DNA of 64,000 bases, taken from an uncultured bacterium (lineage in GTDB: Bacteria > Oederibacteriota > JAAXVQ01 > JAUVAV01). This document shows, piece after piece, positions 8,372 to 59,920 of the stretch (position 1 is its first letter; the number at the start of each line of letters is the position of its first letter). The position numbers were made by a program, and so were the translations under genes. Under the pieces are notes generated by a model that did no database searches, was not told where the DNA came from, and worked only from the letters and a program-made list of their open reading frames with translations. The DNA is taken from positions 32,001 to 96,000 of the forward strand of contig CAVQBK010000001.1 in the NCBI GenBank assembly GCA_963710755.1, given 5' to 3'.

Positions 8372-8385
8372 GCGAGGAGGACCAT

Positions 8386-12116: not shown

Positions 12117-12119
12117 TCT

Positions 12120-20979: not shown

Positions 20980-21336
20980 ATGAAGAAGATCAATGTGAAT
21001 GTTAAAGCATCTGATTTCAACCCGGCATGTACGGTGGTGGACGTTGAAGGATTCCTGGACGCCTATACCGTAGCCGAGCTGGAGGAAGCTTTTAACAACC
21101 TCATAAAAGAAAAGAAATTCAAACTGATCGTGAATTTAGCCAAATTGGATTATATCAGCAGCGCCGGCTTGGGGACATTTATGGGCGTGATCGATGAAAT
21201 CCGGGACAACGACGGTGATATTGTCTTAACCAATCTGTCGCCCAAAATTTACAAAGTGTTTGATCTGCTCGGGTTCTCAGAGTTGTTCGAAATCGTGGAC
21301 AACGAAACGGAAGCTGTGGCTAAATTTGCCGAATGA
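20980..21336 (+). CDS. STAS anti-sigma-factor antagonist (RsbV/SpoIIAA-like)
   Basis: LDYISSAGLG phospho-Ser motif, VFDLLGF; strong GGAGGTGA RBS. Confidence 0.93.
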   Translation: MKKINVNVKASDFNPACTVVDVEGFLDAYTVAELEEAFNNLIKEKKFKLIVNLAKLDYISSAGLGTFMGVIDEIRDNDGDIVLTNLSPKIYKVFDLLGFSELFEIVDNETEAVAKFAE

Positions 21337-21397
21337 GAACGATTGCGGCCAGCCAACTTCTGTTAATCCGGGATCCTTACTGTCACGAGGACCACTA

Positions 21398-22633: not shown

Positions 22634-22861
22634 AAGGGTTATTGCTTGTTCTTTGGAACTGGGGGGCGGCAAGGAATTCCGGGCTATTAAAACCTTATTT
22701 AATAACCCGCCGGCGCTGGGCATGCTGCAATTTCCGGCAATAAAACCAAAAGGCATCACAGTTCCTTGGAAATGATTGACAGGGTGCCAGAACGTTAATC
22801 TATGCGAATTCCACCATTTACGCGTGCAGATCATGGAAGAGGAAAAATCATCGTGAAGATA

Positions 22862-43229: not shown

Positions 43230-43231
43230 TA

Positions 43232-43434
43232 CATCCGCACTTCCTCGACTGTGTCGCGGCCCAGTGTTCCGCCTACCCCCAATCAATTTAGAGGAGAGGG
43301 TTAGGGTGAGGGGACTATTTAAAAGTTTTTAAAACAAAAACTATTGTAACCCCTCATCCTGCACCTTCTCCCCTCTGATGAGGGGAGAAGGGATTATTAA
43401 GCGTCGCGACACAGTTTCGAAAAGTGCGGGGATG
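43232..43434. repeat. Nested inverted-repeat element (MITE/REP-like)
   Basis: Outer CATCCGCACTT/AAGTGCGGGGATG; middle ACTGTGTCGCG/CGCGACACAGT; inner GGAGAGGGTTAGGGTGAGGGG/CCCCTCATCCTGCACCTTCTCC plus hairpin CCTTCTCCCCTC-TGAT-GAGGGGAGAAGG. Confidence 0.8.
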
Positions 43435-43470
43435 AAGCGACAATAAAAATATTAATCTTCTTTCTTTTAT

Positions 43471-43508
43471 ATTTAAATACCCCGCAACTCATTGCGGGGT
43501 ATTTAAAT
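43471..43508. terminator. Perfect 17-bp hairpin (terminator or REP-like)
   Basis: ATTTAAATACCCCGCAA-CTCA-TTGCGGGGTATTTAAAT. Confidence 0.65.
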
Positions 43509-43751
43509 CGACGTTTAGTCGCATAAGCCTCTTACCCTTCCATTTTTCTTCCAGATGGGCACGGCCAAAGCTATACACATGAAATAGGAATCAGTTTTCT
43601 TGACCTGACTCGACTAATCCGAATATTTAAGGGACAACTACCTCAAAGAAATCAAGTCTATGACCTTGTCTGATCCGCTATGACCTATTAAGAAATCGCC
43701 TCAAATACCGTAACTTCAGTCAGATTAAATGATTGAGGTTGAGGAGGAATT

Positions 43752-45953
43752 ATGCGCTGGCGGCGAATACCAATGGGGCTGTTATTAGTGGCAATTGGGA
43801 TCTGCTCTTTATCCAAACCGGTCAACGCTGTGGAAAGTTTCAGTCCGGTGACCGAACTTTTGCTCTTCAGCGATGAGATTATGGTCATGTCCGCTACCAA
43901 GCGACTGCAAAAATTGTCCGAAGTTCCCGGATCGGTCACCATTATTACGGAGAAAGAAATCAAACAAAGCGGGGCCTTGACCATCTTTGAAGCTCTGCGT
44001 AATTTGGCTGACATTACTATTATAAATGAGGGGTTGTTCAATACCATTCGCTTTCGTAGTATGCAGGCGGCTTACAATAACAAAATTCTCGTACTTATTG
44101 ACGGCCGGAAAGTCAACACCATGGACTGGGGAAATTTTGACGGCGATCTGGGCATTAACTTGGCCAATGTTAAACAGATTGAGGTTATTAAAGGCCCGGG
44201 ATCATCTCTGTATGGCGCCAACGCCTATGCCGGAGTGATCAGTATTGTCACCAAAGACGGCGCCGAGATCGGCGGGTTGAAAACCGATATAAGCGTGGGC
44301 AACAAACCGGGAGACAGGGAAGTGTCCCAAAAATATAGTTTAACTTATGGTAAGAAAATGGACGATCTGGATTGCAAGATATCCGCCAGCTATTGGCGTG
44401 CATCGGGTATTGATCTTTACGATGGTCCTCATCCCAACGATCTTTTTGACGGTGAAGAAGCCAGTTTTGCGTTGAAATACAAAGATGATTGGATGGTTCA
44501 AGGTGGTTACCATAAATCCAGCTCACCCTGGAACGGCTCGGAATACAATCCTACTCCTAAAAATACGGAGGATTTAGAACAGCTTTATTTGGACGGCACT
44601 TACAGTTTGGCTTTGAATGACCTTTCCAAATTAAAACTACACCTGACCGACAATTACAATTTAAAACGATACATCCATACCGAATTATGGAATCTTGACC
44701 GCCAAAAAATTAACACTATTAATGACTTACCTTCACCAGCACCGATTATGATTGTAACCGATAAAGGAAACACGGAGCCCATCGACAATGCCGTGGGGGG
44801 ATATTACATTGGGCTTAATGACTTTTTACGCGTGATCGACAGCAGTGCCCTGAGTATGGAGGATCTCGGTTTGGGCCGCATGAATGAATTCATGGCGGAT
44901 TTACAGTATGACCTGGCCTGGCCGCAAAACAATTATTTGCTGGCCGGCCTTAGTCTCAAATACGATTGGAGCAATCAGGATTATTTCAAACAGGATGTGG
45001 TGACCGATACAAATTATGCGGTTTACCTGCAGGATGAATATCATCTGGGTGATCAATTAATCCTGCTTAGCGGCATCCGCTATGATTATAACCAAGATTA
45101 TGGCAGCAATACCAGCCCGCGGGAAAGCCTGATCTACGAACCCTTAAAAGGCCTGCGCATGAAAGCTCTCTATGGCAGCGCTTTCCGGGCGCCGGTAATT
45201 CTTGAACGCTACACCCTTACCGATTATGGGTTTTATGAAGCCACGGGTAATTTGGATCTGAAACCGGAAAGCATTCAACAAAGTGAAGCCAGTGTTGAAT
45301 ATGAAAACGGCCAGTGGTTAAAAGCCAAAGCCGGTTACTTTTACTGGGAAACCGCCAATGAAATCCAGTTTGATTACACGATGGGCAGGCTTTTTGTTTA
45401 TAGCCCGGATTTGAGCTTGATCAGCCCGCTCATGCCCGCATTGCCCGGGTTGTTATATGCCGGGGAATTAAATGCCGCGCCTGCCCTGGTAAGCTGGGGT
45501 AATGCCAACAGCCGCATTGGCCACGGGCTGGAACTGGAGACCACCATTACGCCTAATGAGTTTACTCAAATACAATTAAATTACAGCCGCACCACCCTAT
45601 ATGCCCGAAACAGACCTCAGGCTCCGGAATGGGCTGAAGGGGTGGCCGATATTGCCAATGCCATTGTGGGACTGCATTTTAAGGATCTGGTCTTCATGAA
45701 TTTTTATGCTCATGCCGGACGCAGTCCCATGACCGTTAATGTGGATCCCGATGCCGGTCTAGGTCTGGCAGTGGAAGCCCATTGGCTGCAACAGTACGAT
45801 ATCAGTCTGGGGGGACAATATGAGGGGTTTAGCTTAGTGGCTACGGCCTTTAACATCTTTCACAATGCCATAGTTTATGACAGCCGTTATAGCCAATCTT
45901 TGGAAGGGCCAACCATCTATCGGCTGAATGCTTCTTATACCCTGAAATTTTAA
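43752..45953 (+). CDS. TonB-dependent receptor, array copy 1
   Basis: Signal peptide; plug motifs NNKILVLIDG, QIEVIKGPGSSLYGANAYAGVI; NLDLKPE; C-terminal YTLKF. Confidence 0.93.
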   Translation: MRWRRIPMGLLLVAIGICSLSKPVNAVESFSPVTELLLFSDEIMVMSATKRLQKLSEVPGSVTIITEKEIKQSGALTIFEALRNLADITIINEGLFNTIRFRSMQAAYNNKILVLIDGRKVNTMDWGNFDGDLGINLANVKQIEVIKGPGSSLYGANAYAGVISIVTKDGAEIGGLKTDISVGNKPGDREVSQKYSLTYGKKMDDLDCKISASYWRASGIDLYDGPHPNDLFDGEEASFALKYKDDWMVQGGYHKSSSPWNGSEYNPTPKNTEDLEQLYLDGTYSLALNDLSKLKLHLTDNYNLKRYIHTELWNLDRQKINTINDLPSPAPIMIVTDKGNTEPIDNAVGGYYIGLNDFLRVIDSSALSMEDLGLGRMNEFMADLQYDLAWPQNNYLLAGLSLKYDWSNQDYFKQDVVTDTNYAVYLQDEYHLGDQLILLSGIRYDYNQDYGSNTSPRESLIYEPLKGLRMKALYGSAFRAPVILERYTLTDYGFYEATGNLDLKPESIQQSEASVEYENGQWLKAKAGYFYWETANEIQFDYTMGRLFVYSPDLSLISPLMPALPGLLYAGELNAAPALVSWGNANSRIGHGLELETTITPNEFTQIQLNYSRTTLYARNRPQAPEWAEGVADIANAIVGLHFKDLVFMNFYAHAGRSPMTVNVDPDAGLGLAVEAHWLQQYDISLGGQYEGFSLVATAFNIFHNAIVYDSRYSQSLEGPTIYRLNASYTLKF

Positions 45954-46004
45954 AAAGGTCGAGCTGACCAGAGAAGACAGGGATCCCAAGGAGGGGAAAG
46001 GTAA

Positions 46005-48200
46005 ATGAAAAAATATCTCGTTATAGGGCTGATGGTTTTGACGATGACCGCTGTATGCAGGCCGCTTCTTCATGCCATGGACAGCTTTAGTCCGGTAACA
46101 GAGCTCATGCTCTTTAGTGATGAGATTATGGTCATGTCCGCCACCAAGCGCTTACAAAAGCTTTCGGAAGTACCTGGGTCGGTTACAATTATTACTGGAA
46201 AAGAGATCAGGGAAAGCGGGGCCCTGACCATCTTTGAAGCGCTGCGCAATATGACCAATGTGGCCGTCCTCAACGAGGGATTGTTCGATTCACTCCGCTT
46301 TCGGGGCATGCAATCAGCTTCCAATAATAAAATCCTGGTTTTGGTGGATGGCCGAAAAATCAACACTTTGGATGTGGGCAATTATGACGGGAAATACGGA
46401 ACGGATTTAAGCAACGTCAAGCAGATCGAAGTCATTAAAGGACCTGGGTCTTCGTTGTATGGGGCCAATGCTTATGCCGGTGTTATCAATATTGTCACCA
46501 TGGACGGCGTGGATATCGGAGGCGTTAAAACCGATGTCAGTATTGGCAATAAACCGGGCGATTTTGAGCTTTCACAGAAATACAACCTTGCTTATGGCGA
46601 TAAAAAAGGAGATTTGGATTACAAAGTCACTGCCGGTTATTGGCGCGCCCTTGGTGTGGACCTGGTCAATGTGGATCATCCCAATGACTTATTCACCGGG
46701 GCCGATGCCAATTTCAAACTTAAGTTCAAAGATACTTGGATGGTGCAGGGCGGCTATCTCAATGCCACGACTCCTTGGGATGGTTCGACCTTTACGCCGA
46801 CGCCACGTAATCATGAAAAGCAGGACGTGTTTTATTTGGATGGAACCTATAAACTCGAGCTCAATGAGTTATCCAGTCTTAAGCTGCACTTAACGGACAA
46901 TTATTATGTCAACCATATGGTGGAAACAGAAACATGGGATCTTGATAGGCAAAAGATCAACAGTTCGGCAGACCTGCCCGTGCCGACGCCTCAGATAATT
47001 GTCACCGACAAGGGACTGATGGAATCGGTAGACAAGGCCAATGGACAATATTATATCGGCGTCAATGATCTGTTTCGTATTGTCAGCGGCAGTGCCCTGG
47101 AGATGATCGAGTTGGGCAAGGGGCGTCTCAATGGGCTTATGCTCGAGTTGCAATACGACCTCGCCTGGCCGCAGAACAACTACCTTTTGGCCGGACTTAG
47201 TTTTGACTACAATTGGGTTGATCAAAATTATATTTTTGGTGGTCAAGTAACAGATCAAAATTATGCGGTTTACCTGCAGGATGAATATCATCTGGCTGAT
47301 CGATTGATCTTACTTAGTGGACTTCGTTATGATTACAATCAGGATTACGGTAGTGACCTCAGCCCCAGGGAAAGTTTGATCTACGAACCGCTGAAAGGCC
47401 TGCGATTCAAAGCCCTTTACGGCAGTGCCTTTAGAGCTCCGGTTTTCTTGGAACGCTACACCAACACCGATTACGGTTTTTACGAGGCCAATGGCAATCC
47501 TGATCTCAAACCGGAAAGTGTTCAGCAAAGTGAAGCCAGTGTGGAATATGAACTGGGTAAATGGCTTAAGACCAAGGCCGCCTATTTTTACTGGGAAACA
47601 GCCAATGAAATTCAGTTTGCCTACACCTTGGGGTCACTCTATGTCTATTCACCTGATTTGAGCCTGATCAGTCCCCTATTGCCCCCTGTTCCCGGCTTGT
47701 TTTACACGGAGCAGTTGAATATCGCCCCTGCCTTTGTGAGCTGGGATAATTCCAACAGCCGTATAGGCCATGGTGTGGAGCTGGAAACCACAGTGGAACC
47801 CACGCCCTTCACCCGGCTGCAATTAAATTACAGCCGAATTAACCTCTATGCCCGAAAATTATCGGTGGCTCCGGAATGGGCCAGCGGTACCAGCGACATC
47901 GCCAATGCGGTTCTAGGGTTGCATTATCAGGATTTAATATTTCTTAATTTTTACGCCCACACGGCCCGCGTGCCTGTGGCTTATGGCGATAACTTCTTGG
48001 CAATAGAAAACAACAAGATTGAATCCAAATGGGTGCAACAATACGATGTGAGCCTGGGTTGTAACATAGCAGGATTCAGTGTGGTGGCGGCAGCGTTTGA
48101 TATTTTTAACAACCCTATAGACTACAACGAACAAACCGGAGACTACTTGCGAGGCAAACCACTGTATCGCGTGAATGCTTCCTATACATTGTCCTTCTGA
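46005..48200 (+). CDS. TonB-dependent receptor, array copy 2
   Basis: Same plug motifs, GNPDLKPE, C-terminal YTLSF. Confidence 0.93.
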   Translation: MKKYLVIGLMVLTMTAVCRPLLHAMDSFSPVTELMLFSDEIMVMSATKRLQKLSEVPGSVTIITGKEIRESGALTIFEALRNMTNVAVLNEGLFDSLRFRGMQSASNNKILVLVDGRKINTLDVGNYDGKYGTDLSNVKQIEVIKGPGSSLYGANAYAGVINIVTMDGVDIGGVKTDVSIGNKPGDFELSQKYNLAYGDKKGDLDYKVTAGYWRALGVDLVNVDHPNDLFTGADANFKLKFKDTWMVQGGYLNATTPWDGSTFTPTPRNHEKQDVFYLDGTYKLELNELSSLKLHLTDNYYVNHMVETETWDLDRQKINSSADLPVPTPQIIVTDKGLMESVDKANGQYYIGVNDLFRIVSGSALEMIELGKGRLNGLMLELQYDLAWPQNNYLLAGLSFDYNWVDQNYIFGGQVTDQNYAVYLQDEYHLADRLILLSGLRYDYNQDYGSDLSPRESLIYEPLKGLRFKALYGSAFRAPVFLERYTNTDYGFYEANGNPDLKPESVQQSEASVEYELGKWLKTKAAYFYWETANEIQFAYTLGSLYVYSPDLSLISPLLPPVPGLFYTEQLNIAPAFVSWDNSNSRIGHGVELETTVEPTPFTRLQLNYSRINLYARKLSVAPEWASGTSDIANAVLGLHYQDLIFLNFYAHTARVPVAYGDNFLAIENNKIESKWVQQYDVSLGCNIAGFSVVAAAFDIFNNPIDYNEQTGDYLRGKPLYRVNASYTLSF

Positions 48201-48329
48201 TAGGTTTGGAGCGCATTGATTGACGAAGAAAAATATTAGATTCGGCCTTGATCTGATTAAAAAATGGTTAATTTTCCAAATACTACGCCGAAACTTTGGA
48301 CGAAAACAAAGTAAATGAGGGATGGGCTT

Positions 48330-50534
48330 ATGGCATTAAGAAAGATAGTTTTAACCCTTCTAATGTGTGTTGCCGGTTGGGCTGGTTTGGGGATTACTTT
48401 AGGCCTGGCCATGGATGGCTTAAGCCCGGTAACGGAACTTATGCTGTTCAGCGATGAAATGATGGTGCAATCAGCCACCAAGCGGTTGCAGAAGCTGTCT
48501 GAGGTGCCTGGATCGGTTACTATTATTACTGAAAAAGAGATCAGAGAAAGCGGTGCCTTAACCATCTTTGAAGCCCTGAAAAACATGACCGATATGGCCA
48601 TTATCAATGAAAGCCTTTTTGATGCCATCCGCTTTCGAGGCATGCAGGCTTCCTACAATAATAAAATACTGGTTCTGGTGGACGGTCGTAAAGTCAATAC
48701 CATGGACTGGGGCAACTATGACGGTAAATTTGGCACGGACCTGGCCAATGTAAAGCAAATCGAAGTAATTAAAGGTCCGGGGTCATCCCTCTATGGGGCC
48801 AATGCCTATGCTGGAGTCATCAGTATCATCACCAAAGACGGAGCCGAAATTGGCGGCCTTAAAACTGATGTGAGCGTGGGGAATAAACCCGGTGATTTTG
48901 AACTTTCTCAGAAATATTCGCTGACTTATGGCACCAAACAAGGTGATCTGGATTATAAAGTGACCAGCAGTTATTGGCGCGAATTTGTCGTTGATCCCAT
49001 CACTCCCCAGACTCCCAATAGTCTTTGCAATGGTGTGGATGCCAATTTCCGGCTTGCCTATAAAGAGAAATGGATGTTGCAAGGCGGTTATTTCCGTTCC
49101 ACCAATCCCTGGAACGGGTCGCCCTATACCCCCACCCCCAATAACAATGAACAGTTGGAAACCTTGTTCTTAGATGGTACCTATGGGTTGGACTTGAATG
49201 ATCTTTCAAAATTAAAATTACACGTAACGGACAATTATTCTTTGAACAGAATTTTTAAAACCGAATTGTGGAATCTGAATCGAATAAAAATCAACAGTAT
49301 GTCCGATTTGCCGACTCCTACCCCGAGTGTTATTGTGGACGACCAGGGCAATTTTAGCCTGATTACCGATGCGATTGGACAATATTATATCGGGTTTGAG
49401 GATTTGACCAGGATTATGAGCGGCCATGGGGTGGTGGTATCGGACTTGGGAAAGGGCCAGGCCAATGAATTCAATGCCGAGTTGCAATATGACCTGTCCT
49501 GGCCGCAAAACAATTACCTGCTGGCCGGACTTAATGTCAAGTTTGATTGGACCAATCAAAATTATTTTACTCAGGACGAAGTCACCGATCAGAATTATGC
49601 GGTATTTCTTCAAGATGAATATCATCTGGGCGATGATCTGATCTTCTTAAGTGGCTTGCGTTATGATTATAACCGGGATTATGGCAGCAATCTCAGCCCC
49701 AGGGAGAGCCTGATATATGAGCCCCTCAAAGGCCTTCGTATGAAGGCCCTTTATGGCAGCGCCTTCCGCGCGCCCGTAATTCTGGAACGGTATACTTTAA
49801 GTGATTACGGGTTTTATGATGTTACCGGCAATCCGGAGTTAAAACCGGAGAGCATCCAGCAAAGCGAAGCCAGTGTGGAATATGAACTGGGCAAAGTGTT
49901 CCAAGCCAAGGCTGCCTATTTTTACTGGGAAACCAAAAATGAAATTCAATTTGCCTACACGTTTGGCGATCTTTTCGCTTATGTACCCGACTTTAGCCTG
50001 CTTGATCCCATGCAGCCGGCCATGGCCGGTCTGCTTTATTTAAAAGAACTAAATGTGGCCCCTGCCTTTGTGACCTGGGACAATTCCAACAGCCGCATTG
50101 GCCATGGATTGGAATTGGAAACCACCATCACTCCAACGGATTTTGCCCGCCTCAAGTTAAATTATAGCAGGCTTAATCTCTATTCCAGAAACATTTTGGT
50201 AGCCCCTGAATGGGCGCAAGGTGTTGCCGATATTGCGAACGGCATCGTGGAATTGCATTATAAAGATTTGGTGTTTTTAAATGTCTACGCCCATGTTGGC
50301 CGCATGCCAGTCACCGTTGTGGCTGACCCCATGGTCAACCGGGATAGGCATGTGGAAGCCAATTGGCTGCAGCAATATGATGTGAGTCTGGGCTGCAATG
50401 TTCAAGGACTCAGCCTGGTAGCAGCTGTTTTTAATGTATTAAATAATGCCGTGGCCTTTGATGAAAAAGATGCCAAGTATTTAAAAGGTTCACCCATATA
50501 TCGTCTTAATGCGTCGTACACACTTAAATTTTAA
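48330..50534 (+). CDS. TonB-dependent receptor, array copy 3
   Basis: Same plug motifs, GNPELKPE, C-terminal YTLKF; start 48330 (or 48315). Confidence 0.93.
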   Translation: MALRKIVLTLLMCVAGWAGLGITLGLAMDGLSPVTELMLFSDEMMVQSATKRLQKLSEVPGSVTIITEKEIRESGALTIFEALKNMTDMAIINESLFDAIRFRGMQASYNNKILVLVDGRKVNTMDWGNYDGKFGTDLANVKQIEVIKGPGSSLYGANAYAGVISIITKDGAEIGGLKTDVSVGNKPGDFELSQKYSLTYGTKQGDLDYKVTSSYWREFVVDPITPQTPNSLCNGVDANFRLAYKEKWMLQGGYFRSTNPWNGSPYTPTPNNNEQLETLFLDGTYGLDLNDLSKLKLHVTDNYSLNRIFKTELWNLNRIKINSMSDLPTPTPSVIVDDQGNFSLITDAIGQYYIGFEDLTRIMSGHGVVVSDLGKGQANEFNAELQYDLSWPQNNYLLAGLNVKFDWTNQNYFTQDEVTDQNYAVFLQDEYHLGDDLIFLSGLRYDYNRDYGSNLSPRESLIYEPLKGLRMKALYGSAFRAPVILERYTLSDYGFYDVTGNPELKPESIQQSEASVEYELGKVFQAKAAYFYWETKNEIQFAYTFGDLFAYVPDFSLLDPMQPAMAGLLYLKELNVAPAFVTWDNSNSRIGHGLELETTITPTDFARLKLNYSRLNLYSRNILVAPEWAQGVADIANGIVELHYKDLVFLNVYAHVGRMPVTVVADPMVNRDRHVEANWLQQYDVSLGCNVQGLSLVAAVFNVLNNAVAFDEKDAKYLKGSPIYRLNASYTLKF

Positions 50535-50578
50535 GTGTAATAACTACAGCCAATGGGCAACCAAGCTAGGAGGGAAAA

Positions 50579-52790
50579 ATGAATCTCAAAAAGGGTATGT
50601 CAGCAGTTGCCATGATGGCAGTGATCATGGCCGGGACCACGGCAGGGCTGGTTCAAGCCATGGACAGCTTTAATCCGGTAACAGAGCTCATGCTGTTCAG
50701 TGACGAGATTATGGTTATGTCCGCCACCAAGCGCCTGCAGAAGCTCTCCGAAGTGCCTGGGTCGGTCACCATTATTACGGAAAAAGAAATCAAGGAGCGG
50801 GGAGCACTTACGATCTATGATGCCTTGTTCAATATGACTGGTGTTTGTTTTGCCAATGAGGGTCTGTTCAATACCATGCGCTTCCGTGATATGCAAGCTT
50901 CTTATAACAATAAAATATTGGTCTTGGTGGATGGGCGGAAAGTCAATGCGCTGGACTGGGGCAATTATGACGGTAACTTTGGTACCAACCTGGCGAATGT
51001 GAAACAGATCGAAGTGATCAAAGGTCCGGGATCATCCCTCTATGGCGCCAATGCCTATGCCGGGGTTATCAATATCGTGACCAAGGACGGCGCTGAGATC
51101 GGCGGGCTCAAAACGGACATCAGTATTGGCAACAAACCTGGCGATTCGGAAGTCTCCCAGAAATACACGGTAACCTATGGCAATAAAACCGGAGATTGGG
51201 ACTACAAAGTCTCGAGCAGCTACTGGCGTGCATTGGGTATTGATCCATACAATGGTCCTCATCCCAATGACCTCTATACGGGTGACTCGGCTGACTTCAG
51301 TCTGAAATGGAAAGATCAATGGACTTTGAACGGCGGTTATCAGAAAAACAGCAATCCCTGGAGCGGTTCCGAATGGACGCCCACGCCCAGAAACACGGAA
51401 GAAATGGAATCCATCTATTTGGATACCACATATAATCTAACCCTCAATGATCTTTCCAAAGTGAAAGCCCATTTAACGGATACCTATGATTTGACCAGAG
51501 CCCTGCGCAGTGAATATTGGGATATTACCCGCAGAAAGATCAACAGCATAAGCGATCTGCCCACACCGACGCCGGTGGTTATTATAGATGAGCAGGGTAA
51601 CATGGACTTCGACATTGCCAATACTGTGGGTAATTATTACATTGACTTTAATGATTTTGTTAAAATCGCTACCGGTGGCGCGCTGGATGTGGTGGATTTA
51701 GGCCGGGGCCAGATGAATGAATTCAGCGCTGATGTTCAATATGATTTGGCGTGGCCGCAAAACAACTATTTGCTGGCTGGGATCAATGTCAATCTGGCTT
51801 GGTCGAATATTGACTATTATAATATCAATCAAGTAACAGACAATAACTATGCCGCCTACGTCCAGGATGAATATCATTTGGGCGATCAGTTGATCCTGCT
51901 CAGCGGTCTGCGCTATGACTATAACCGGGATTATGGCAGCAACCTGAGCCCCCGGGAGAGCTTGATCTACGAACCGCTCAAAGGTCTGCGTTTCAAGGGC
52001 CTGTATGGCAGTGCTTTTAGGTCGCCTGTGATCTTTGAACGCTATGCTCTGACGGACTATGGCTTTTATGAAGTTAAGGCCAACGTGGATTTAAAACCGG
52101 AGAGCATTCAGCAGAGTGAAGCCAGTGTGGAATATGAAATCGGCAAATGGTTTCAAGCCAAGGCCGATTATTTTTACTGGGAAACTCAGAATGAAATTCA
52201 ATTCGCCTATACCTTTGGAAACCTTTATGCCTATGTGCCTGATTTTAGTTTACTTGATCCCATGCAGCCGTCCATGGCCGGGTTCCTCTATCTGCAAGCG
52301 TTGAATGTAGCTCCTGCCTTTGTAAGTTTTGACAATTCCAACAGCCGCATTGGTCATGGCTTTGAATTGGAAACCAACATCGCACCAACCGATTATACCC
52401 GGCTCAAGTTGAATTACAGCCGCATTAATCTCTATGCCCGAAAAGAACCAATCCATCCTTCCTGGGATCAAGGCGTGGCGGATATTGCCAACGCGGTACT
52501 GGAATTGCATTACCAGGATATGGTTTTTCTTAATTTCTATGCCCACGTAGCCGCAAGCCCCACCAAAATCAAAATGGAGGCGGAAATCCGCTGGTAAAAA
52601 CATATATATAGCCTCCAAATGGCTGCCCCAATATGACGTCAGCCTGGGCTTTAATCTTGATCAATTCAGCCTGGTGGCCGCGGTCTATAACGTATTTTCC
52701 AATCCCGTGGCCTATGATGGAGGCGTGGATGATTATTTGAAAGGCCAACCGCTTTACCGTGTAAATTTGGGGTATACCCTTAAATTTTAA
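50579..52790 (+). pseudogene. TonB-dependent receptor, array copy 4, interrupted by a +1 frameshift near 52565-52594 (pseudogene or sequencing error)
   Basis: ORF stops at 52597; the +1 frame continues SAGKNIYIASKWLPQYDVSLG...RVNLGYTLKF* to 52790, matching the paralogs. Confidence 0.88.
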
Positions 52791-52824
52791 AAAAAATGAG
52801 GTATAACACCATAGGGGGCAGGCA

Positions 52825-55029
52825 ATGGCGGGAATAAGGGGGCTGACAGCAGTTGCCATGATGGGAGTGGTCATGACCGGCGCCATGGCAGGGCTGGTTC
52901 AAGCCATGGACAGCTTTAGTCCGGTAACAGAGCTCATGCTATTCAGTGATGAGATTATGGTCATGTCTGCTACCAAGCGCCTGCAAAAGCTTTCGGAAGT
53001 ACCCGGGTCGGTGACCATCATCACCGAAAAGGAAATTAAAGAACGGGGCGCTTTAACTATTTACGAAGCGCTGACCAATATGACCGGGGTGAGCTTTGCC
53101 AATGAAGGCTTGTTCAACACCATGCGTTTCCGCGGCATGCAAGCGTCCTATAATAACAAGATTTTGGTTTTAGTGGACGGCCGCAAGATCAATGAAATGG
53201 ATTGGGGTAATTACAATGGTGATTTCGGCACCCATTTAGCCAATGTCAAGCAAATCGAGGTGATCAAAGGTCCGGGGTCATCCCTCTATGGGGCCAATGC
53301 CTATGCCGGAGTCATCAATATCGTGACCAAGGACGGAGCTGAAATCAGCGGGCTAAGTACCGAGGTTAGTATAGGCAACAAACCAGGTGATTTTGAAGTG
53401 TCTCAGAAATATACCATGACTTACGGAACCCAAAACGGGGACTGGGATTATAAGGTATCAACTAGTTATTGGAGGGAAAAGGGCATTGATCCTTATAACC
53501 ATCCCAGTCCCAACAACTTGTTTACCGGCGACCAGGCTAATTTCAGTCTGAAATGGAAAGATCAATGGAGCCTGCAAGGCGGCTATCAACGGACTAAAAA
53601 TCCATGGAATGGATCCGAATGGACGCCCACACCTAAAAATGCTGAAGAATTGGAAATATTATATTTGGACAGTACCTATACTATGGAGCTTAATGATCTT
53701 TCCAAAGTCAAGTTGCGGATAAGTGACAACTATGATTTGAATAAAGTCTTGCTCAGTGAGTATTGGGATTTAAACCGTATCAAGATTAACTCACTAAGCG
53801 ATTTGCCTTCTCCTTCCCCTGTGATCATTGTCACCGATACCGGAGAAATGCAGCCGATTGCCAATGCCATCGGCCGTTACTACATCCCTTTTGAAAATTT
53901 TATCAATCTGGCCAACAACCAGGCCCTTGATGTGGTGGCTTTGGGCCGCGGCCAAATCAACGAATTCATGACAGATGTACAGTATGACCTTTCCTGGCCG
54001 CGAAATAATTATTTGTTGGCCGGCGTCAATGTGCAATACGGTTGGTCCAATATGGATTATTACAATCAGCCCCAGGTGACAGATAACAATTACGCGGTTT
54101 ATGTTCAGGATGAGTATCATTTGGGTGATCAGCTCATTCTTTTGAGTGGGTTGCGTTATGACTACAACCAGGATTATGGCAGTAATCTTAGCCCCCGGGA
54201 AAGCGTTATCTATGAACCTGTGAAAGGGTTGCGTCTGAAAGGCTTATATGGCAGCGCTTTTCGCGCGCCCGTGATATCGGAACGCTATTCAGAGACGGAT
54301 TATGGTTTTTATGAAGCCACGGGCAATATTAATTTAAAACCTGAAAACATCCAGCAGAGTGAAGCCAGCATAGAATACGAGCTGGGCAAATGGCTGCAGG
54401 CCAAGGCCGGTTATTTTTATTGGGAAACGCACAATGAAATTCAATTTGATTATACTTATGCCAATTTGTACGCTTATGTGCCTGATTTCAACCTGATCGA
54501 TCCCATGCAACCACACATGGCAGGACTGCTTTATTTGAAGGACCTAAATGTGGCCCCGGCCTTGGTGACTTGGGACAACACCAACAGCCGCATTGGCCAT
54601 GGGGTGGAACTGGAAACCATCTTGACCCCGAGTGATTTTACCAAGCTTAAACTCAATTACAGCCGGATCAATCTTTACGCCCGGGATATTCCTGGAGCAC
54701 CAGAATGGGATCAAGGCATAGCGACGATAGCCAATGCTGTTTTGGAATTACATTATAAAGACTTGGTTTTCCTGAATTTTTATGCCCATCTGTCGTCAAG
54801 TCCAACCAAAAACACTAATGGCGGCTTGGACGGAAACGGCTATTACATAGCGTCCAAATGGTTGCCTCTGTATGACGTGAGCCTGGGCTTTAACATTGAC
54901 AAATTCAGCCTGGTGGCCGCGGCTTACAATGTCTTTGAAAATCCTGTGGCCTATGATAGTGCCATTGATGATTACCTGAAAGGCCAGACCCTTTATCGTG
55001 TGAATTTGGGGTATACCCTTAAATTTTAA
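52825..55029 (+). CDS. TonB-dependent receptor, array copy 5
   Basis: Same plug motifs, NLKPE, C-terminal YTLKF. Confidence 0.93.
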   Translation: MAGIRGLTAVAMMGVVMTGAMAGLVQAMDSFSPVTELMLFSDEIMVMSATKRLQKLSEVPGSVTIITEKEIKERGALTIYEALTNMTGVSFANEGLFNTMRFRGMQASYNNKILVLVDGRKINEMDWGNYNGDFGTHLANVKQIEVIKGPGSSLYGANAYAGVINIVTKDGAEISGLSTEVSIGNKPGDFEVSQKYTMTYGTQNGDWDYKVSTSYWREKGIDPYNHPSPNNLFTGDQANFSLKWKDQWSLQGGYQRTKNPWNGSEWTPTPKNAEELEILYLDSTYTMELNDLSKVKLRISDNYDLNKVLLSEYWDLNRIKINSLSDLPSPSPVIIVTDTGEMQPIANAIGRYYIPFENFINLANNQALDVVALGRGQINEFMTDVQYDLSWPRNNYLLAGVNVQYGWSNMDYYNQPQVTDNNYAVYVQDEYHLGDQLILLSGLRYDYNQDYGSNLSPRESVIYEPVKGLRLKGLYGSAFRAPVISERYSETDYGFYEATGNINLKPENIQQSEASIEYELGKWLQAKAGYFYWETHNEIQFDYTYANLYAYVPDFNLIDPMQPHMAGLLYLKDLNVAPALVTWDNTNSRIGHGVELETILTPSDFTKLKLNYSRINLYARDIPGAPEWDQGIATIANAVLELHYKDLVFLNFYAHLSSSPTKNTNGGLDGNGYYIASKWLPLYDVSLGFNIDKFSLVAAAYNVFENPVAYDSAIDDYLKGQTLYRVNLGYTLKF

Positions 55030-55066
55030 AAGTATTGTTGAACAATCCCAATGGAGGATGAAAGAA

Positions 55067-57271
55067 ATGATAAAAAATGGACCTTTGGCTTTAATCGTGG
55101 CTCTGGTAGTGACCTCCACGACAACCGTTGCAGTAAAAGCCATGAGTGATTTGAACCAAGTCACGGAACTCATGCTTTTCAGCGATGAGATCATGGTCCA
55201 ATCAGCTACCAAGCGTCTGCAAAAGCTCTCCGAAGTGCCGGGATCGGTGACCATCATTACGGCTAAAGAGATTGAGGAACGGGGAGCCTTAACCATTTAT
55301 GAAGCCTTGAATAACATGACTGGTGTCAGCTTTGCCAATGAAGGTCTGTTTAATACCATGCGTTTTCGTGGCATGCAGGCTTCTTACAACAATAAAATAT
55401 TGCTTCTAGTGGACGGCAGGAAAGTCAATGTCCTCGATTGGGGCAATTATGACGGTAACTTTGGCACCAATCTGGACAATGTCAAGCAGATCGAGGTAAT
55501 CAAGGGTCCCGGGTCTTCGCTCTACGGCGCCAATGCCTATGCCGGTGTGATCAGTATTATCACCAAAACCGGTGCCGAGATCGGTGGTCTGAAAACCGAG
55601 ATGAGCGTAAGCAATAAACCCGGTGATTTTGAGGTGTCCCAAAAGTACAGCCTGACCTATGGTACCAAACAGGATGGCCTGGATTACAAAGTCTCGGCCA
55701 GCTATTGGCGCCAATTGGGCATTGACCCTTTTAATGATCCTCGCCCCAATGATTTATATGAAGGAGAAGATGCCAACTTTAGCCTAAATTTGAAGGATAT
55801 CTGGACACTCCAGGGCGGTTATCACCGTTCCAGCGAACCTTGGAGCGGGTCGGTGTATACGCCAACTCCCAGGAATAATCAGAAAATGGAAATGCTTTAT
55901 TTGGACAGCACCTATACGCTGGGGTTGAATGAATTGTCCAAATTGAAACTCCATATAAGCGATAATTATAACACCTCAAAATTCCTTGAGACGGAATTGT
56001 GGGACCTGGACAGGCAGAAAATTAATAGCGCGGCTGATTTGCCTACTCCTACGCCATCTATTATTGTTACCGACAAAGGGGACATGCAACCAGTAACCAA
56101 TGCCATCGGCAATTATTATATTGGTGTCAATGACTTTCTTAGAATTGTCAGCGGCAGCGGCTTAGATGTAGTGGGTTTAGGTAAAGGACAGATGAATGAA
56201 TTTATCGCTGAAGTCCAATATGACCTGTCCTGGCCGCAGAACAACTATCTTTTGGCCGGGATTAATATGAAATTGGACTGGTCCAACCAGATTTATTTTG
56301 TGACCGATCAAGTCACGGATAACAATTATGCTGCTTATATCCAGGATGAATATCACTTGGCCGATAAATTAATCCTTTTAAGCGGATTGCGTTTTGACTA
56401 TAACCGGGATTATGGTAATAATCTCAGCCCCCGGGAAAGCTTGATCTACGAACCCCTTAAAGGCCTGCGCTTTAAAGGCCTTTATGGAAGTGCTTTTAGA
56501 TCGCCGGTGATGTTGGAAAGATATAGCAATACGGATTACGGGTTTTATGAAGCCACCGGCAACCCTGATGTAAAACCGGAAAGCATTCAGCAAAGTGAAG
56601 CCAGCGTGGAATACGAGCTGGGTAAATGGCTGCAGGCCAAGGCGAACTATTTTTACTGGGAAACGCAAAATGAAATCCAATTTGTCTATACCTTTGGATC
56701 GCTCTATGTCTATTCACCTGATCTCAGCCTGATCAGCCCTCTTATGCCCGCCGTGCCGGGTCTGTTCTATGCTACTCCCTTAAATGTCGCACCGGCACTG
56801 GTGAGTTGGGATAATTCCAACAGCCGTATCGGCCATGGATTGGAATTGGAGACATCGATTACACCTACTGACTATGCTCGAATTAAATTAAATTACAGTC
56901 GCGTCAATCTTTATGCGCGGGAAAAGCCAGCCCATCCATCATGGGCGCAAGGCGTGGCTGATGTGGGCAATGGTGTGTTGGAACTGCATTATAAAAATGT
57001 ACTCTTTTTCAATTTTTATGCTCATATTAGCCGGACGCCCATGACTATTGACAGCGGTTCCACAGCGACGTCCGGCCCGGGAGCTGAGGTGACCGCCAAA
57101 TGGCTGCCGCAATATGATGTCAGCTTGGGATGCAATTATCAGGGGTTAAGCCTGGTAGGGGCAGTCTATAATATTTTTAATAACCCCGTGGCCTATGACA
57201 CCCTTAACGATAATTATCTGAAGGCCGAGCCCATCTACAGACTCAATGCTTCCTATACTCTGAAGTTTTAG
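55067..57271 (+). CDS. TonB-dependent receptor, array copy 6
   Basis: Same plug motifs, GNPDVKPE, C-terminal YTLKF; GGAGG spacing favours ATG 55067 over 55058. Confidence 0.93.
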   Translation: MIKNGPLALIVALVVTSTTTVAVKAMSDLNQVTELMLFSDEIMVQSATKRLQKLSEVPGSVTIITAKEIEERGALTIYEALNNMTGVSFANEGLFNTMRFRGMQASYNNKILLLVDGRKVNVLDWGNYDGNFGTNLDNVKQIEVIKGPGSSLYGANAYAGVISIITKTGAEIGGLKTEMSVSNKPGDFEVSQKYSLTYGTKQDGLDYKVSASYWRQLGIDPFNDPRPNDLYEGEDANFSLNLKDIWTLQGGYHRSSEPWSGSVYTPTPRNNQKMEMLYLDSTYTLGLNELSKLKLHISDNYNTSKFLETELWDLDRQKINSAADLPTPTPSIIVTDKGDMQPVTNAIGNYYIGVNDFLRIVSGSGLDVVGLGKGQMNEFIAEVQYDLSWPQNNYLLAGINMKLDWSNQIYFVTDQVTDNNYAAYIQDEYHLADKLILLSGLRFDYNRDYGNNLSPRESLIYEPLKGLRFKGLYGSAFRSPVMLERYSNTDYGFYEATGNPDVKPESIQQSEASVEYELGKWLQAKANYFYWETQNEIQFVYTFGSLYVYSPDLSLISPLMPAVPGLFYATPLNVAPALVSWDNSNSRIGHGLELETSITPTDYARIKLNYSRVNLYAREKPAHPSWAQGVADVGNGVLELHYKNVLFFNFYAHISRTPMTIDSGSTATSGPGAEVTAKWLPQYDVSLGCNYQGLSLVGAVYNIFNNPVAYDTLNDNYLKAEPIYRLNASYTLKF

Positions 57272-57597: not shown

Positions 57598-58329
57598 TTG
57601 AAGCCATTAAACCGACCTTTGCAATGTCTAGTCCATCTCAAGTCACTTTTGAGTCCTTCGGTCTGTCCCGTTTGTAAGCGTTCTGCCAACCATTATGCCT
57701 TGCCTATTTTATGCCACCGCTGTCGTCCTAAAGTAAACAATAACCGGCGCTGCTTAAAATGCGGCCGGCTGCTATCGTTAACTATGCCCTATGATATTAT
57801 CGGATGTCGCTATTGCCAAAAAATGTCGTTCACCTTCAATAGTGTTTACTGTTTAGCGGGTTATGAAGGCCTATGGAAAGAAGTCGTTCTTGCCTTTAAA
57901 GCCCATCCAGACCTTTTCCTGATGCTCCAGTTAGCCCACCGCTTCTCCCGAATTCTTAGAAACATCATGGCTGTTACCCGCGATACCTTGGTGGTCACTG
58001 TCCCGCGGCGCTGGAAACACCAGCCCCAAGCCCTCGTCTTCGTCGCAAAAAAAATTGCTTTTTATTCGGATTGTGCCTTTGCCCAACCCTTACGATTTAT
58101 TCGCGCCACCAAGCCGCAACATCAGCTCGGCAGGGAAAAACGTTTGAAAAATATGCGTTTTAGCATGGAAGCCAAAGTTTTGGTGAAGGATAAAGCCATT
58201 GTTTTAATTGACGATGTCCTGACCACAGGCGCTACCCTAAATGAATGCAGCCGGGCGTTGAAAAAAGCAGGGGCAAACTCTGTTGTCGCGCTCACACTGG
58301 CCAGGTCGCTGACCGTATTGGACAAATGA
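57598..58329 (+). CDS. comF: ComF/GntX-family protein (double zinc ribbon + phosphoribosyltransferase)
   Basis: Four CxxC pairs; LIDDVLTTGATL PRPP loop; TTG start after AAGGAG. Confidence 0.9.
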   Translation: MKPLNRPLQCLVHLKSLLSPSVCPVCKRSANHYALPILCHRCRPKVNNNRRCLKCGRLLSLTMPYDIIGCRYCQKMSFTFNSVYCLAGYEGLWKEVVLAFKAHPDLFLMLQLAHRFSRILRNIMAVTRDTLVVTVPRRWKHQPQALVFVAKKIAFYSDCAFAQPLRFIRATKPQHQLGREKRLKNMRFSMEAKVLVKDKAIVLIDDVLTTGATLNECSRALKKAGANSVVALTLARSLTVLDK

Positions 58330-58552: not shown

Positions 58553-59920
58553 TTGAAGCCAACAGTATTAGTTGTCGACGATGATAAGCAGGTCAATGAA
58601 GCCTTAACTCTCATGCTCCAGGATGAGTACAATCCCATCACTGCAACCTCCGGCTTTGAAGCCTTAGAGAAGATCAATAAAAATTCCAATATTGACTTAG
58701 TCCTGCTCGATATTACTATGCCCGAAATGGACGGGCTGGAAGTCCTGAGGAGGATCAAGGAATCCGAACCTTTCCTGGATGTCATCATGGTGACGGCCAC
58801 CAATACTACTGAAGCAGCGGTTAAAACCATTAAATATGGCGCCTACGATTATGTGACCAAGCCTTTTGACAATGCGGAATTAAAAGCCATTATCAACCGG
58901 GCCCTGGAAAAACGAAATCTTTCCAAACTCACAGAAGTCTTGTCTTCTGAAATTGAACGGCTTGTGGAATATGACATTATTGGCAACAGTGACGCTATGC
59001 GGGGCGTTTATTCCATGATTGATAAGGTAGCCGATTCAGACACTACGGTGCTGATTCATGGCGAAAGCGGCACAGGCAAGGAATTGGTGGCCCGCGCGCT
59101 ACATAAAAAAAGTCCCCGTTCTAAAAAACCCTTTGTGGCTGTTAACTGCGCTGCCATCCCGGCGGAACTGGTGGAAAGTGAATTTTTTGGCCATGAACGT
59201 GGGGCTTTTACTTCGGCTGTATCAAGAAAAATCGGAAAATTTGAGTATGCCAATGGCGGGGTTATTTTTCTCGATGATGTAGGCGAGTTGCCTTTGTCCG
59301 TTCAAGCCAAATTACTGCGGGTCCTGCAGGAAAAAGAAATCGTGCGCGTTGGCTCCAATGAATTGATCCCGGTGGATGTGCGGGTGGTCGCTGCCACTAA
59401 TGACAACCTTCAGGAATTGATCAAACAGCGCCGTTTCAGAGAAGACCTGTATTACCGTCTGAAAGTGGTGCCTATTGAATTGCCGCCTTTGCGGGTGAGA
59501 CGGGAAGATATTCCCAACTTAATCGAACACTTTATCCGCAAAAGCTGTGAACGCCATCATAAGTCTTTTAAAAATATCGATCCCGAAGCCCTGCGTTTGT
59601 TGGTCAACTATAATTGGCCCGGCAATGTGCGGGAATTGGAGAACATGGTGGAGATGGTGGTATTGCTCTCCAGTAGCAATTCTATTTCCGCCAGCGATCT
59701 GCCGTCCAATGTGCTTACCAATCAGGCTTTGGCCGATGGCAGTGATCAAAGCGGAGAAAATCTAACTTTGAAAAAGGCGCGCCAACAGTTTGAGCGCCAG
59801 TTTATTTTAAGAGTTTTGGAAAAATTGCATTGGAATCAAACCAAAGCAGCCAAGATAATGGGCATTCATCGCAATACGCTGATTATCAAGATGGAAGAGC
59901 TGGGCATTAAAAAAGATTAA
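58553..59920 (+). CDS. NtrC/AtoC-family response regulator (REC-AAA+-Fis HTH)
   Basis: VVDDD, LLDITMP, GESGTGKE, GAFTSA, FREDLYYRL, WPGNVREL, NQTKAAKIMGIHRNTL. Confidence 0.95.
   Translation: MKPTVLVVDDDKQVNEALTLMLQDEYNPITATSGFEALEKINKNSNIDLVLLDITMPEMDGLEVLRRIKESEPFLDVIMVTATNTTEAAVKTIKYGAYDYVTKPFDNAELKAIINRALEKRNLSKLTEVLSSEIERLVEYDIIGNSDAMRGVYSMIDKVADSDTTVLIHGESGTGKELVARALHKKSPRSKKPFVAVNCAAIPAELVESEFFGHERGAFTSAVSRKIGKFEYANGGVIFLDDVGELPLSVQAKLLRVLQEKEIVRVGSNELIPVDVRVVAATNDNLQELIKQRRFREDLYYRLKVVPIELPPLRVRREDIPNLIEHFIRKSCERHHKSFKNIDPEALRLLVNYNWPGNVRELENMVEMVVLLSSSNSISASDLPSNVLTNQALADGSDQSGENLTLKKARQQFERQFILRVLEKLHWNQTKAAKIMGIHRNTLIIKMEELGIKKD

Follow-up and report, generated by a model that had tools for sequence, protein, structure and literature searches.

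The window analysed here, a 64,000-nucleotide stretch from an uncultured soil bacterium of candidate division FCPU426, carries six colinear TonB-dependent transporter genes arranged head to tail (T1–T6; 43752-57271, + strand), and sequence comparison indicates that they are old duplicates under purifying selection and not a recent or homogenised expansion. We give roughly 45%, slightly short of an even chance, to the reading in which the array is a subfunctionalised import layer for one class of ligand that feeds periplasmic sensing.

According to the open reading frame calls nothing is interspersed between the six genes, each of which has its own hydrophobic leader with, in the alignment, an A-x-A-like site at its end; in these respects the preliminary description of this DNA, which had listed six colinear head-to-tail paralogs, a signal peptide per copy and a lack of interspersed partner genes, is borne out. 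The spacers measure 51 (T1–T2), 114 (T2–T3), 44 (T3–T4), 34 (T4–T5, counted from the true end of T4) and 28 nt (T5–T6), and the tandem spacing given earlier is therefore retained, with its limits moved from 34-129 to 28-114 nt. Of the six genes of about 730 codons that had been claimed five are intact, the exception being T4, which is frameshifted in this assembly (Table 1).

Table 1. Coordinates within the window of the six transporter genes and their neighbours
Feature	Position	Strand	Basis and remarks
SprA/Sov-like type IX secretion translocon, 2138 aa	36813-43229	+	TIGR04189, 253 bits (cut-off 200)
522-nt spacer between SprA-like gene and T1	43230-43751	+	sequence read; presumed own promoter of the array
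T1, TonB-dependent transporter paralog, 733 aa	43752-45953	+	ORF; Plug 3e-20, barrel 1.9e-25
T2, paralog, 731 aa	46005-48200	+	ORF; Plug and barrel
T3, paralog, 739 aa	48315-50534	+	ORF; Plug and barrel
T4, frameshifted paralog	50579-52790	+	ORF, DNA alignment; 672-aa frame to 52597
T5, paralog, 734 aa	52825-55029	+	ORF; Plug and barrel
T6, paralog, 737 aa	55058-57271	+	ORF; Plug and barrel
ComF-like phosphoribosyltransferase	57598-58329	+	Pfam/NCBIfam matches; downstream, synteny kept
Sigma-54 response regulator	58553-59920	+	Pfam/NCBIfam matches; downstream, synteny kept

All six products match both Plug (PF07715, 71-81 bits against a cut-off of 23.9) and TonB_dep_Rec_b-barrel (PF00593, 78-97 bits against 27), with further weak, sub-threshold Pfam matches to other outer-membrane barrel models. 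For T1 AlphaFold2 predicts a plug and 22 strands, the latter counted from the DSSP string of the model (pLDDT 81.9, pTM 0.81); among solved structures Foldseek ranks Cir, PirA and BtuB best, with 14-18% identity. The invariant N-terminal stretch D-E-I/M-M-V-M/Q-S-A-T aligns at the TonB-box position of related transporters and is taken as a putative TonB box, and an ExbB-ExbD-ExbD-TonB operon is present on contig C6 of the same genome. Five copies terminate in YTL(K/S)F, which T4 has in a shifted frame only.

Cir and BtuB of E. coli have the plug-in-22-strand-barrel fold in common with the array (Foldseek 1.6e-30 for Cir and 4e-29 for BtuB), and the family profile matches Cir at 1.8e-49, mostly across the plug; they differ in that, besides the low identity, no curated siderophore, heme, B12 or catecholate NCBIfam model is reached over its cut-off by the five copies scanned (T1-T3, T5 and T6), and in that FhuD/BtuF-type or ABC genes do not adjoin the array. 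The best NCBIfam scores in these five were 127-143 bits for TIGR01785 (cut-off 317) and 119-132 bits for TOL_0244 (cut-off 645). SusC/SusD loci resemble the array in having several TonB-dependent transporters side by side, in a host likewise equipped with a type IX secretion translocon, but the array has no SusD-like lipoprotein, N-terminal extension domain or glycoside hydrolases, and a SusC/RagA identity was rejected on TIGR04056 scores of 28-31 bits against 368 and on the lack of any gene between or beside the copies. A FecA-type transducer was likewise rejected, since Pfam finds no STN signalling domain in T1–T6, only about 20 residues of the mature N-terminus precede the plug, and no FecR or ECF sigma gene adjoins the array.

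The copies had been called closely related, which overstates the case: they are 63-77% identical as proteins and their synonymous differences are saturated (pS 0.70-0.77). Values of dN/dS between paralogs are 0.06-0.12 in the 10 of 15 pairs with an estimable dS. The mature N-terminus is, as had been noted, near-invariant (18 of 21 columns; pairwise identity 94% on average) and is followed by a plug at 82%; pS is 0.71 even over the invariant N-terminus, so selection, not gene conversion, maintains this region. Predicted surface loops are 56% identical as against 70% for the strands, falling to 38-39% in loops 2 and 5 and to 14% in loop 10, while the alignment is colinear with almost no indels, a single indel region leaving loop lengths nearly fixed. 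This combination of colinear copies, invariant plug and TonB-box region and divergence concentrated in loops fits the earlier proposal of a repertoire for one ligand class. A characterised receptor under uniform purifying selection, raised earlier as a counter-possibility, is found by half: selection is purifying, and no curated family is reached over its cut-off.

Comparison with the nearest relative, L022, places the duplications in time. Its contig holds orthologs of T2, T4 and T6 in the same order of SprA-like gene, array, ComF-like gene and regulator: L022_a, the ortholog of T2 as judged from 85% identity across the full length; L022_b, 85-86% identical to T4; and L022_c, to which T6 is closest (77%), together with P0005. 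An ortholog of T1 was not found in this contig. In the tree T3 clusters with T1 and T2 (support 98), and T5, 77% identical to T4, is sister to the pair of T4 and L022_b. Ortholog pairs have a pS of 0.57-0.63, lower than that of the paralogs, and the duplications are thus older than the split from L022. In the three ortholog pairs loop omega is 0.10-0.12, and this conservation of the loops argues against arms-race diversification.

The flanking genes also have same-position counterparts in L022, with identities of 85% for the SprA-like gene, 55% for the ComF-like gene and 96% for the sigma-54 response regulator. The 522-nt spacer preceding T1 contains a G+C-rich hairpin (43479-43500) and no sigma-54 or sigma-70 consensus match beyond chance, and the only part of it shared with L022 is a short block some 40 nt ahead of the start codon. 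We regard the SprA-like neighbour as context, any functional tie to the array being putative.

From the sequence searches, the family is restricted to one order of FCPU426. About 32 proteins are at least 35% identical to it, after which identity falls sharply to 29% or less, and it occurs in 7 of 61 genomes of the phylum, all of them in families f1 and f2. In the array's own genome it accounts for seven of the eight Plug-domain genes. A wider FastTree phylogeny puts the family on a long branch as sister (support 87) to a group with many binding-protein-coupled transporters.

It is the neighbours of family members elsewhere that point towards sensing. In G005 a family transporter is followed by a PF04392 binding-protein gene and then by a HAMP-MCP chemoreceptor gene, and the family arrays of G031, G025 and G053 have PF04392 genes interspersed. 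Among outgroup loci outside the family PF04392 lies directly downstream in 16 of 72, with a membrane signal transducer next in 15 of these 16. The array's own genome has two PF04392 genes, neither with adjacent ABC genes: one, on contig C13 and unlinked to the array, precedes a HAMP-MCP gene, and the other, on contig C2, precedes a gene for a 567-aa protein. The C13 pair is homologous to the G005 cassette (binding protein 41%, chemoreceptor 40% identity), and the nearest relative retains both genes (82% and 91%). Chemotaxis machinery is represented in the genome by six MCPsignal matches over the family cut-off and three CheW-domain matches. The binding protein scores at least 430 bits in all seven family-positive genomes and at most 346 bits in four genomes of the same order that lack the family (E<=1e-40), these being counts over related genomes and not over independent samples. 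No binding-protein gene or sensor was seen in or next to the array, at L022 or at L026/G057_C253; coupling is absent at every examined locus of the array's 12-row clade and may have been lost there. The preliminary description had also suggested signal import, by way of the nearby two-component and enzyme-sensor cassettes. Import for sensing gains from the cassettes in relatives and from the unlinked C13 pair, but the particular route proposed does not, as both neighbouring cassettes, two-component and SpoIIE, come with sensor domains of their own and nothing was seen to connect them with the array.

Modules of this kind have precedents. The XAC2383-XAC2382 pair of Xanthomonas citri, reportedly described by Teixeira et al. 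in J Biol Chem in 2018, is said to comprise a PF04392-type binding protein that lacks an ABC transporter and partners a membrane transducer, the output reportedly being a diguanylate cyclase and no outer-membrane transporter array being involved. In Cycloclasticus sp. P1 the ligand is reported to be handed from the receptor to a binding protein and on to the sensor along PahS-PahP-PahK/PahR, a pathway said to control both chemotaxis and catabolism (Wang et al., iScience 2023, PMC10570129). The same order of transporter, binding protein and transducer genes is seen in relatives of the array's family. The likeness rests on this gene order and on the Cycloclasticus loci L059 and L082, where a related transporter is followed by PF04392, the paper naming no Pfam family for PahP. 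The array differs in having six transporters instead of one and no adjacent binding protein or sensor; PahK is a histidine kinase of 771 aa, whereas the FCPU426 relative has a chemoreceptor as its output, and the sensor at L059 and L082 is a hybrid kinase-GGDEF-EAL protein of about 1500 aa.

On the sensing reading the six genes would be ancient paralogs from an order-specific FCPU426 family, subfunctionalised and set out like an operon, each encoding a plug-in-barrel outer-membrane channel energised, through its N-terminal TonB-box region, by ExbB-ExbD-ExbD-TonB. With its own stably kept loops each copy would probably admit its own ligand out of a single class of small organic compounds, which in the periplasm might be captured by the two transporter-less PF04392 binding proteins, one of them encoded beside a methyl-accepting chemotaxis protein. 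The array would then be the amplified, unlinked outer-membrane input of a pathway from transporter to binding protein to chemoreceptor. Gene structure, fold, age, selection mode, distribution and the cassettes in relatives have been shown here, whereas the kind of ligand, its transfer to the binding protein and any output to chemotaxis are inferences. A stronger version, in which all seven lineage-specific transporters, each with its own ligand, pump signals to the two PF04392 proteins and on to the chemoreceptor, so that chemotaxis in this uncultured phylum hangs on energised outer-membrane import and not on porin diffusion, we hold to be doubtful.

The usual view of TonB-dependent transporters is that they scavenge nutrients. 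In this genome of a candidate phylum nearly all of them come from one family, and that family's sole recurrent partners are a binding protein and a transducer. Should the array feed sensing, the one characterised case, PahS/PahP, would be extended both to chemotaxis and to another phylum, and it would follow that this outer-membrane layer can be multiplied and set apart from its sensor; should the array not do so, it would be an ordinary, if unusually tidy, case of old subfunctionalised transporter paralogs. Either way, the case illustrates that a conspicuous tandem array need not be a hotspot of diversification and can be old and quiet in terms of selection.

Plain nutrient uptake, the chief alternative, is a serious possibility, though short of probable: six scavenging transporters would take up substrates related to each other, for instance organic or metal chelates or the oligomers that type IX-secreted enzymes set free, the inner membrane would be crossed by transporters encoded elsewhere, and the link to binding protein and chemoreceptor would have been lost in the clade. 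Nutrient breadth is the usual reason for many TonB-dependent transporter paralogs, and it would agree with the lack of partner genes in the array and in its nearest syntenic relative, with the adjoining SprA-like translocon and a type IX-tailed protein near a relative's copy (L016), and with purifying selection on each copy, which fits stable substrate specificities equally well. Several observations also count against sensing: seven transporters to two binding proteins is an odd ratio if there is one ligand per transporter, the family is sister to the group with many binding-protein-coupled transporters and not nested in it, and the PF04392 proteins with solved structures bind aromatic amino acids, for which a TonB-dependent transporter is normally unneeded. 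The four same-order genomes with PF04392 genes and no family transporter show, moreover, that the binding protein does not need the family. Against scavenging, however, stand the lack of an inner-membrane transporter, hydrolase or SusD-like gene at any examined family locus, the fact that the sole recurrent partner in family and outgroups is PF04392 and then a signal transducer, not a permease, and scores that fall far short of the cut-off in each curated model for siderophores, heme, B12 or SusC.

Surface variation, in which the copies vary an exposed receptor for phages or predators by alternative expression or by an arms race in the loops, had also been put forward, and it would account for the loops being the most diverged parts, for low-depth metagenome contigs that differ from the window exactly at loop 10, and for the raised loop omega, 0.34-0.48 and in one pair as much as 0.79 across its variable loops, in the arrays of G031 and G025, which are younger (pS 0.28-0.41 in G031 as against 0.70-0.77 here). 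It is nevertheless improbable for the six-copy array, whose duplicates are old with saturated synonymous sites, whose T2, T4 and T6 loops are conserved between species, whose loop lengths are near-fixed, and which has no invertible promoter, recombination cassette or near-identical repeat, its short spacers being unrelated to each other. That the array is an assembly artefact, a possibility raised earlier, a binning artefact or a decaying set of pseudogenes is hardly credible, the frameshift in T4 notwithstanding: about one third of protein positions differ between copies, too many for an assembler to duplicate or merge them; the contig that encloses the array is 368 kb long and belongs to a genome of 13 contigs that is 98% complete; the independent assembly L022 has its three orthologs in the same synteny; and the five intact copies have low dN/dS.

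The break in T4 is itself well delimited. Its 672-aa frame ends at 52597 and the last 65 or so residues continue in another frame from 52596, with a stop codon at 52788-52790; alignment with T5 at the DNA level reveals indels of 1 and 5 nt in the loop-10 region, and the part past the break is still 79% identical to T5. A contig from soil-metagenome run X2 covering 52472-52623 has 2 nt fewer at 52571 and an extra A after 52589, changes that give T4 an open frame of 736 codons with YTLKF at its end: an intact T4 allele exists in the soil metagenome.

The array consists of six genes on the forward strand that we regard with high confidence as genuine, old and individually conserved paralogs of a lineage-specific family of TonB-dependent transporters, five of the six copies being, with the same high confidence, intact. 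All of them match the Pfam Plug and TonB_dep_Rec_b-barrel models well over the gathering scores, with weak sub-threshold matches only to other outer-membrane barrel models, and the spacers between them (51, 114, 44, 34 and 28 nt, the 34 counted from the true end of T4), when read, contained no interspersed genes. In the alignment each copy has its own leader (mean identity 30%) with an A-x-A-like site at its end, and the mature N-terminus is near-invariant (18 of 21 columns identical). Short spacers, a Shine-Dalgarno-like GGAGG preceding most of the starts and a hairpin located 3' of the upstream SprA-like gene indicate that T1-T6 are probably co-transcribed. Matches to the sigma-54 consensus were in no excess over chance (32 seen vs 41 expected) with none upstream of T1, and sigma-70-like and terminator-like sites occurred at shuffle level only.

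Positions of the transporter array and of the features directly upstream of it (window coordinates)
Feature	Length	Position	Strand	Type
SprA/Sov-like type IX secretion translocon	2138 aa	36813-43229	+	
Hairpin		43479-43500		
T1	733 aa	43752-45953	+	ORF
T2	731 aa	46005-48200	+	ORF
T3	739 aa	48315-50534	+	ORF
T4	672 aa frame	50579-52597	+	ORF, broken
T5	734 aa	52825-55029	+	ORF
T6	737 aa	55058-57271	+	ORF

The preliminary description had reported six paralogs of about 730 aa; there are indeed six colinear genes, but T4 had been read through a break at 52597. Its final ~65 residues, with YTLKF at the end, lie in another frame (stop codon 52788-52790), and comparison with T5 DNA places 1-nt and 5-nt indels within the loop-10 region. 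The frameshift site (52560-52600) is a short A-run, GGAGG-rich stretch. Parts of the array were found only in contigs (Logan) of three soil-metagenome runs, all of a single study, at a depth of 2-4, and no RNA data set was listed for it. Array stretches left uncovered by these contigs carry no information, and none of the contigs bridges two array copies. A contig of run X2 over 52472-52623 differs by -2 nt at 52571 and by an additional A after 52589, and with these changes T4 is open over 736 codons and ends in YTLKF. The X2 indels thus restore the frame, indicating an intact T4 allele in a close strain; the window's break is then either an assembly error or a lesion of recent origin confined to its strain. 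Contigs of run X1 part from the window at two points, 50547 and just ahead of 52605 (loop 10), a thin hint, from single contigs at a depth of ~3, of possible strain differences in copy order or loop sequence. Their loose ends are 18 letters before 50547, identical to the T4-T5 spacer, and 62 letters before 52605, with a different loop-10 sequence.

At the protein level the six copies are 63-77% identical, with indels nearly absent from the alignment. The proportion of synonymous differences (pS, Nei-Gojobori) is saturated in all 15 pairs (0.70-0.77) and stays at 0.57-0.89 throughout in 30-codon windows, while dN/dS is 0.06-0.12 in the 10 of 15 pairs where dS was estimable. Gene conversion was considered for the invariant N-terminus and rejected, as pS is 0.71 there, the same as elsewhere; together with a proportion of non-synonymous differences of 0.04, this means that the segment is kept by purifying selection. 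An AlphaFold2 model of T1 (pLDDT 81.9, pTM 0.81) supplied, through its DSSP string, the strand and loop bounds, the loop assignment being our own reading of this model and not a computed membrane topology. The model predicts a standard plug-in-barrel transporter fold, with Cir, PirA and BtuB as its closest counterparts (14-18% identity). Mean pairwise identity is 94% in the TonB-box region, 82% in the plug, 70% in strands, 66% in periplasmic turns and 56% in the predicted surface loops overall, of which loop 10 is the most variable segment (14%; loops 5, 2 and 11: 38%, 39% and 45%). Because dS is saturated, site-wise dN/dS, the check proposed in the preliminary description, is infeasible among the six copies, and omega (dN/dS) was instead estimated per segment on ortholog pairs, giving 0.10-0.12 for loops, 0.05-0.11 for strands and 0.04-0.06 for the plug. 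These low values, loops included, indicate that each copy has kept its own surface.

The orthologs come from the nearest-relative contig (L022, in bin G061), an independent MAG assembly with the order SprA-like gene, three transporters (L022_a, L022_b and L022_c), ComF-like gene and sigma-54 regulator, where the SprA-like, ComF-like and regulator genes are 85%, 55% and 96% identical to those of the window. In a tree of 40 rows (IQ-TREE quick search, LG+G4; the truncated T4 duplicate row P0003 excluded), T1-T6, the three L022 copies and homolog P0005 form one clade (support 100) with the subclades {T5,{T4,L022_b}}, {T6,{L022_c,P0005}} and {T1,T3,{T2,L022_a}}. As ortholog pS (0.57-0.63) lies below paralog pS, the duplications predate the split between the two genomes. 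A chimeric or unequal-crossover origin of the L022 copies was rejected, since for each of them a single copy of the array is best in (nearly) all 60-column windows: L022_b is best to T4 in 9 of 12, with T5 marginally higher in three, and the best match of L022_c is less clear than that of L022_a or L022_b. Counterparts of T1, T3 and T5 are absent from the L022 contig, and none of the family fragments elsewhere in the bin is closest to these copies. The bin looks composite: two extra T2-like fragments on other contigs (C20:6-1394 and C145:2-580, 87% and 82% identical to T2) suggest that it mixes two strains or species, making its copy counts unsure. Younger arrays are found in a separate genus, with four copies in genome G031 and three, one of them broken, in G025 (pS 0.28-0.41, loop omega 0.34-0.48). 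At the G025 locus (L014, G025:C20) the two binding-protein genes (8115-9011 and 11760-12656) are 99.7% identical and the flanking transporters 73%, suggesting that the binding protein alone was duplicated or converted very recently.

Family homologs comprise about 32 proteins at least 35% identical, followed by a sharp fall to 29% or less, and their records are assigned to candidate division FCPU426. Among 61 genomes drawn evenly from the phylum the family was present in seven: the genome holding the window, five of the nine others of its family (f1) and one of two of the sister family f2 in the same order. The window's genome (3.44 Mb, 13 contigs, 98% complete) has eight Plug-domain genes, six of which form the array; the seventh, on contig C3, is a family member (47% identical), and the eighth, on C7, is an unrelated transporter adjoining a Peripla_BP_2 gene. 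An ExbB-ExbD-ExbD-TonB operon is located on C6. No NCBIfam model exceeded its cut-off for the five copies scanned (all but T4), the best match being the heme-type TIGR01785 (127-143 bits vs a cut-off of 317), with SusC/RagA at 28-31 bits vs 368. The array contains no N-terminal signalling domain and no SusD, FecR, ECF sigma, ABC or enzyme gene.

Evidence on possible partners comes from relatives. In the f2 genome (G005, single copy) the transporter is followed by a periplasmic binding protein of family PF04392 (300 aa) and a HAMP-MCP chemoreceptor (579 aa), and in the arrays of G031, G025 and G053 PF04392 genes follow some of the transporter copies. A 575-aa gene also adjoins the G005 transporter; its proposed kinship with a 567-aa protein of the window's genome was rejected, the two being unrelated. 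The family profile matched 77 loci (one genome per species), 72 of them outgroups, and in 16 of the 72 a PF04392 gene directly follows the transporter, a figure that describes these loci and gives no unbiased rate, since loci were picked by plug-motif similarity. In 15 of these 16 a membrane signal transducer is encoded next: a hybrid kinase-receiver-GGDEF-EAL protein of ~1500 aa at ten loci, a HAMP kinase at three, and a PAS-GGDEF-EAL and a HAMP-SpoIIE protein at one each. At five further loci a PF04392 gene lies nearby on the opposite strand. In a FastTree phylogeny of 97 rows the family (support 100) is sister, with a support of 87, to a 39-row group with 12 of the 16 coupled loci (Cycloclasticus among them), a weak placement because of the long branch leading to the family; both share an N-terminal [D/E]-L-x-L-x-[Y/F]-[G/S]-[D/E] ahead of the TonB box. 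The three-gene transporter, PF04392 and hybrid-kinase module is widespread in proteobacteria: loci L032, L038, L043, L048, L056, L058, L059, L060, L079 and L082 encode a hybrid histidine kinase-receiver-Hpt-GGDEF-EAL protein of ~1350-1550 aa in third position. Two loci without a binding protein hold three (L068, Sulfuricellaceae) and two (L030, Nitrospirae) tandem transporters of the outgroup clade, and tandem amplification of such transporters therefore recurs in other phyla.

The window's genome itself encodes two PF04392 proteins, neither with adjoining ABC genes. One, on C13, precedes a HAMP-MCP; the two are 41% and 40% identical to their G005 counterparts over full length, and both are kept in the nearest relative's bin (82% and 91%). 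The other, on C2 (L019 5039-8715, reverse strand), is followed by the 567-aa protein, which has no Pfam match and an outer-membrane-type C-terminus (...ELSILF), and then by an ECF sigma factor, a module conserved in G061:C105 at 57-59% identity. Within the window, a 304-aa ORF (60961-61875) was considered as a PF04392 homolog and rejected as not homologous. In the 61-genome sample a binding protein scoring at least 430 bits against the family profile occurs in 7/7 genomes with the transporter family, and four same-order genomes with binding proteins and without the transporter family reach at most 346 bits; this is a pattern among interrelated genomes and not a statistical test. A chemotaxis system is present, as six MCPsignal matches over the cut-off and three CheW-domain matches indicate. 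Complex prediction for T1 (34-733) with the C13 binding protein, run without controls, gave 0.07 and 0.17 (mark 0.32), evidence neither way.

We tentatively read the array as serving sensing-coupled import, with a probability of about 0.45. We infer that the copies each take a different member of a single ligand class; less confidently, we propose that these ligands would be delivered to the PF04392 proteins that have no transporter beside them and would then be read by the C13 chemoreceptor. That the array performs plain nutrient uptake is a serious possibility, though we would not assert it. It explains the selection pattern equally well; this, the absence of adjoining binding proteins in all loci seen of the 12-row clade holding the array, and the ratio of seven transporters to two binding proteins count against the sensory reading. 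Surface variation, such as the evasion that the preliminary description had proposed, is improbable; the loop omega of orthologs speaks against diversification in an arms race. Least credible of all is an artefact or decay of the array, and the rest of the probability goes to none of these readings.

Sensing-coupled import has a characterised analogue in the PahS-PahP-PahK/R system of Cycloclasticus, where aromatic hydrocarbons are handed by a TonB-dependent receptor to a binding protein in the periplasm, which in turn activates a sensor kinase without a periplasmic domain (PMC10570129). Table 1 of PMC10443332 lists L-Trp, L-Tyr and L-Phe as ligands of PF04392 proteins with solved structures. 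One experimental system already shows the module of transporter, binding protein and transducer; the novelty here lies in the variant, an array that is larger and far older, is without its binding proteins and dominates the transporter complement of its genome. A literature search for TonB-dependent receptors in tandem, in clusters or as paralogs yielded no report of such arrays, and titles and abstract beginnings retrieved for TonB-dependent proteins with chemoreceptors and solute-binding proteins mentioned no such module; among the matches listed, the FCPU426 literature consisted of community surveys.

Among the neighbours in the window, a partner-switching-type cassette (19270-24271, forward strand) encodes an sCache-HAMP-SpoIIE phosphatase, a STAS and HATPase_c_2 protein and a GAF-GGDEF cyclase. 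This is the enzyme-sensor cassette of the preliminary description, read there as a hint of signal import; no link between it and the array was found. The SprA/Sov-like gene, directly upstream of T1, scores 253 bits against TIGR04189 (cut-off 200). The adjacency of SprA and array is seen only in the window's genome and its nearest relative, and the large gene next to the array of G031 is no relative of SprA.
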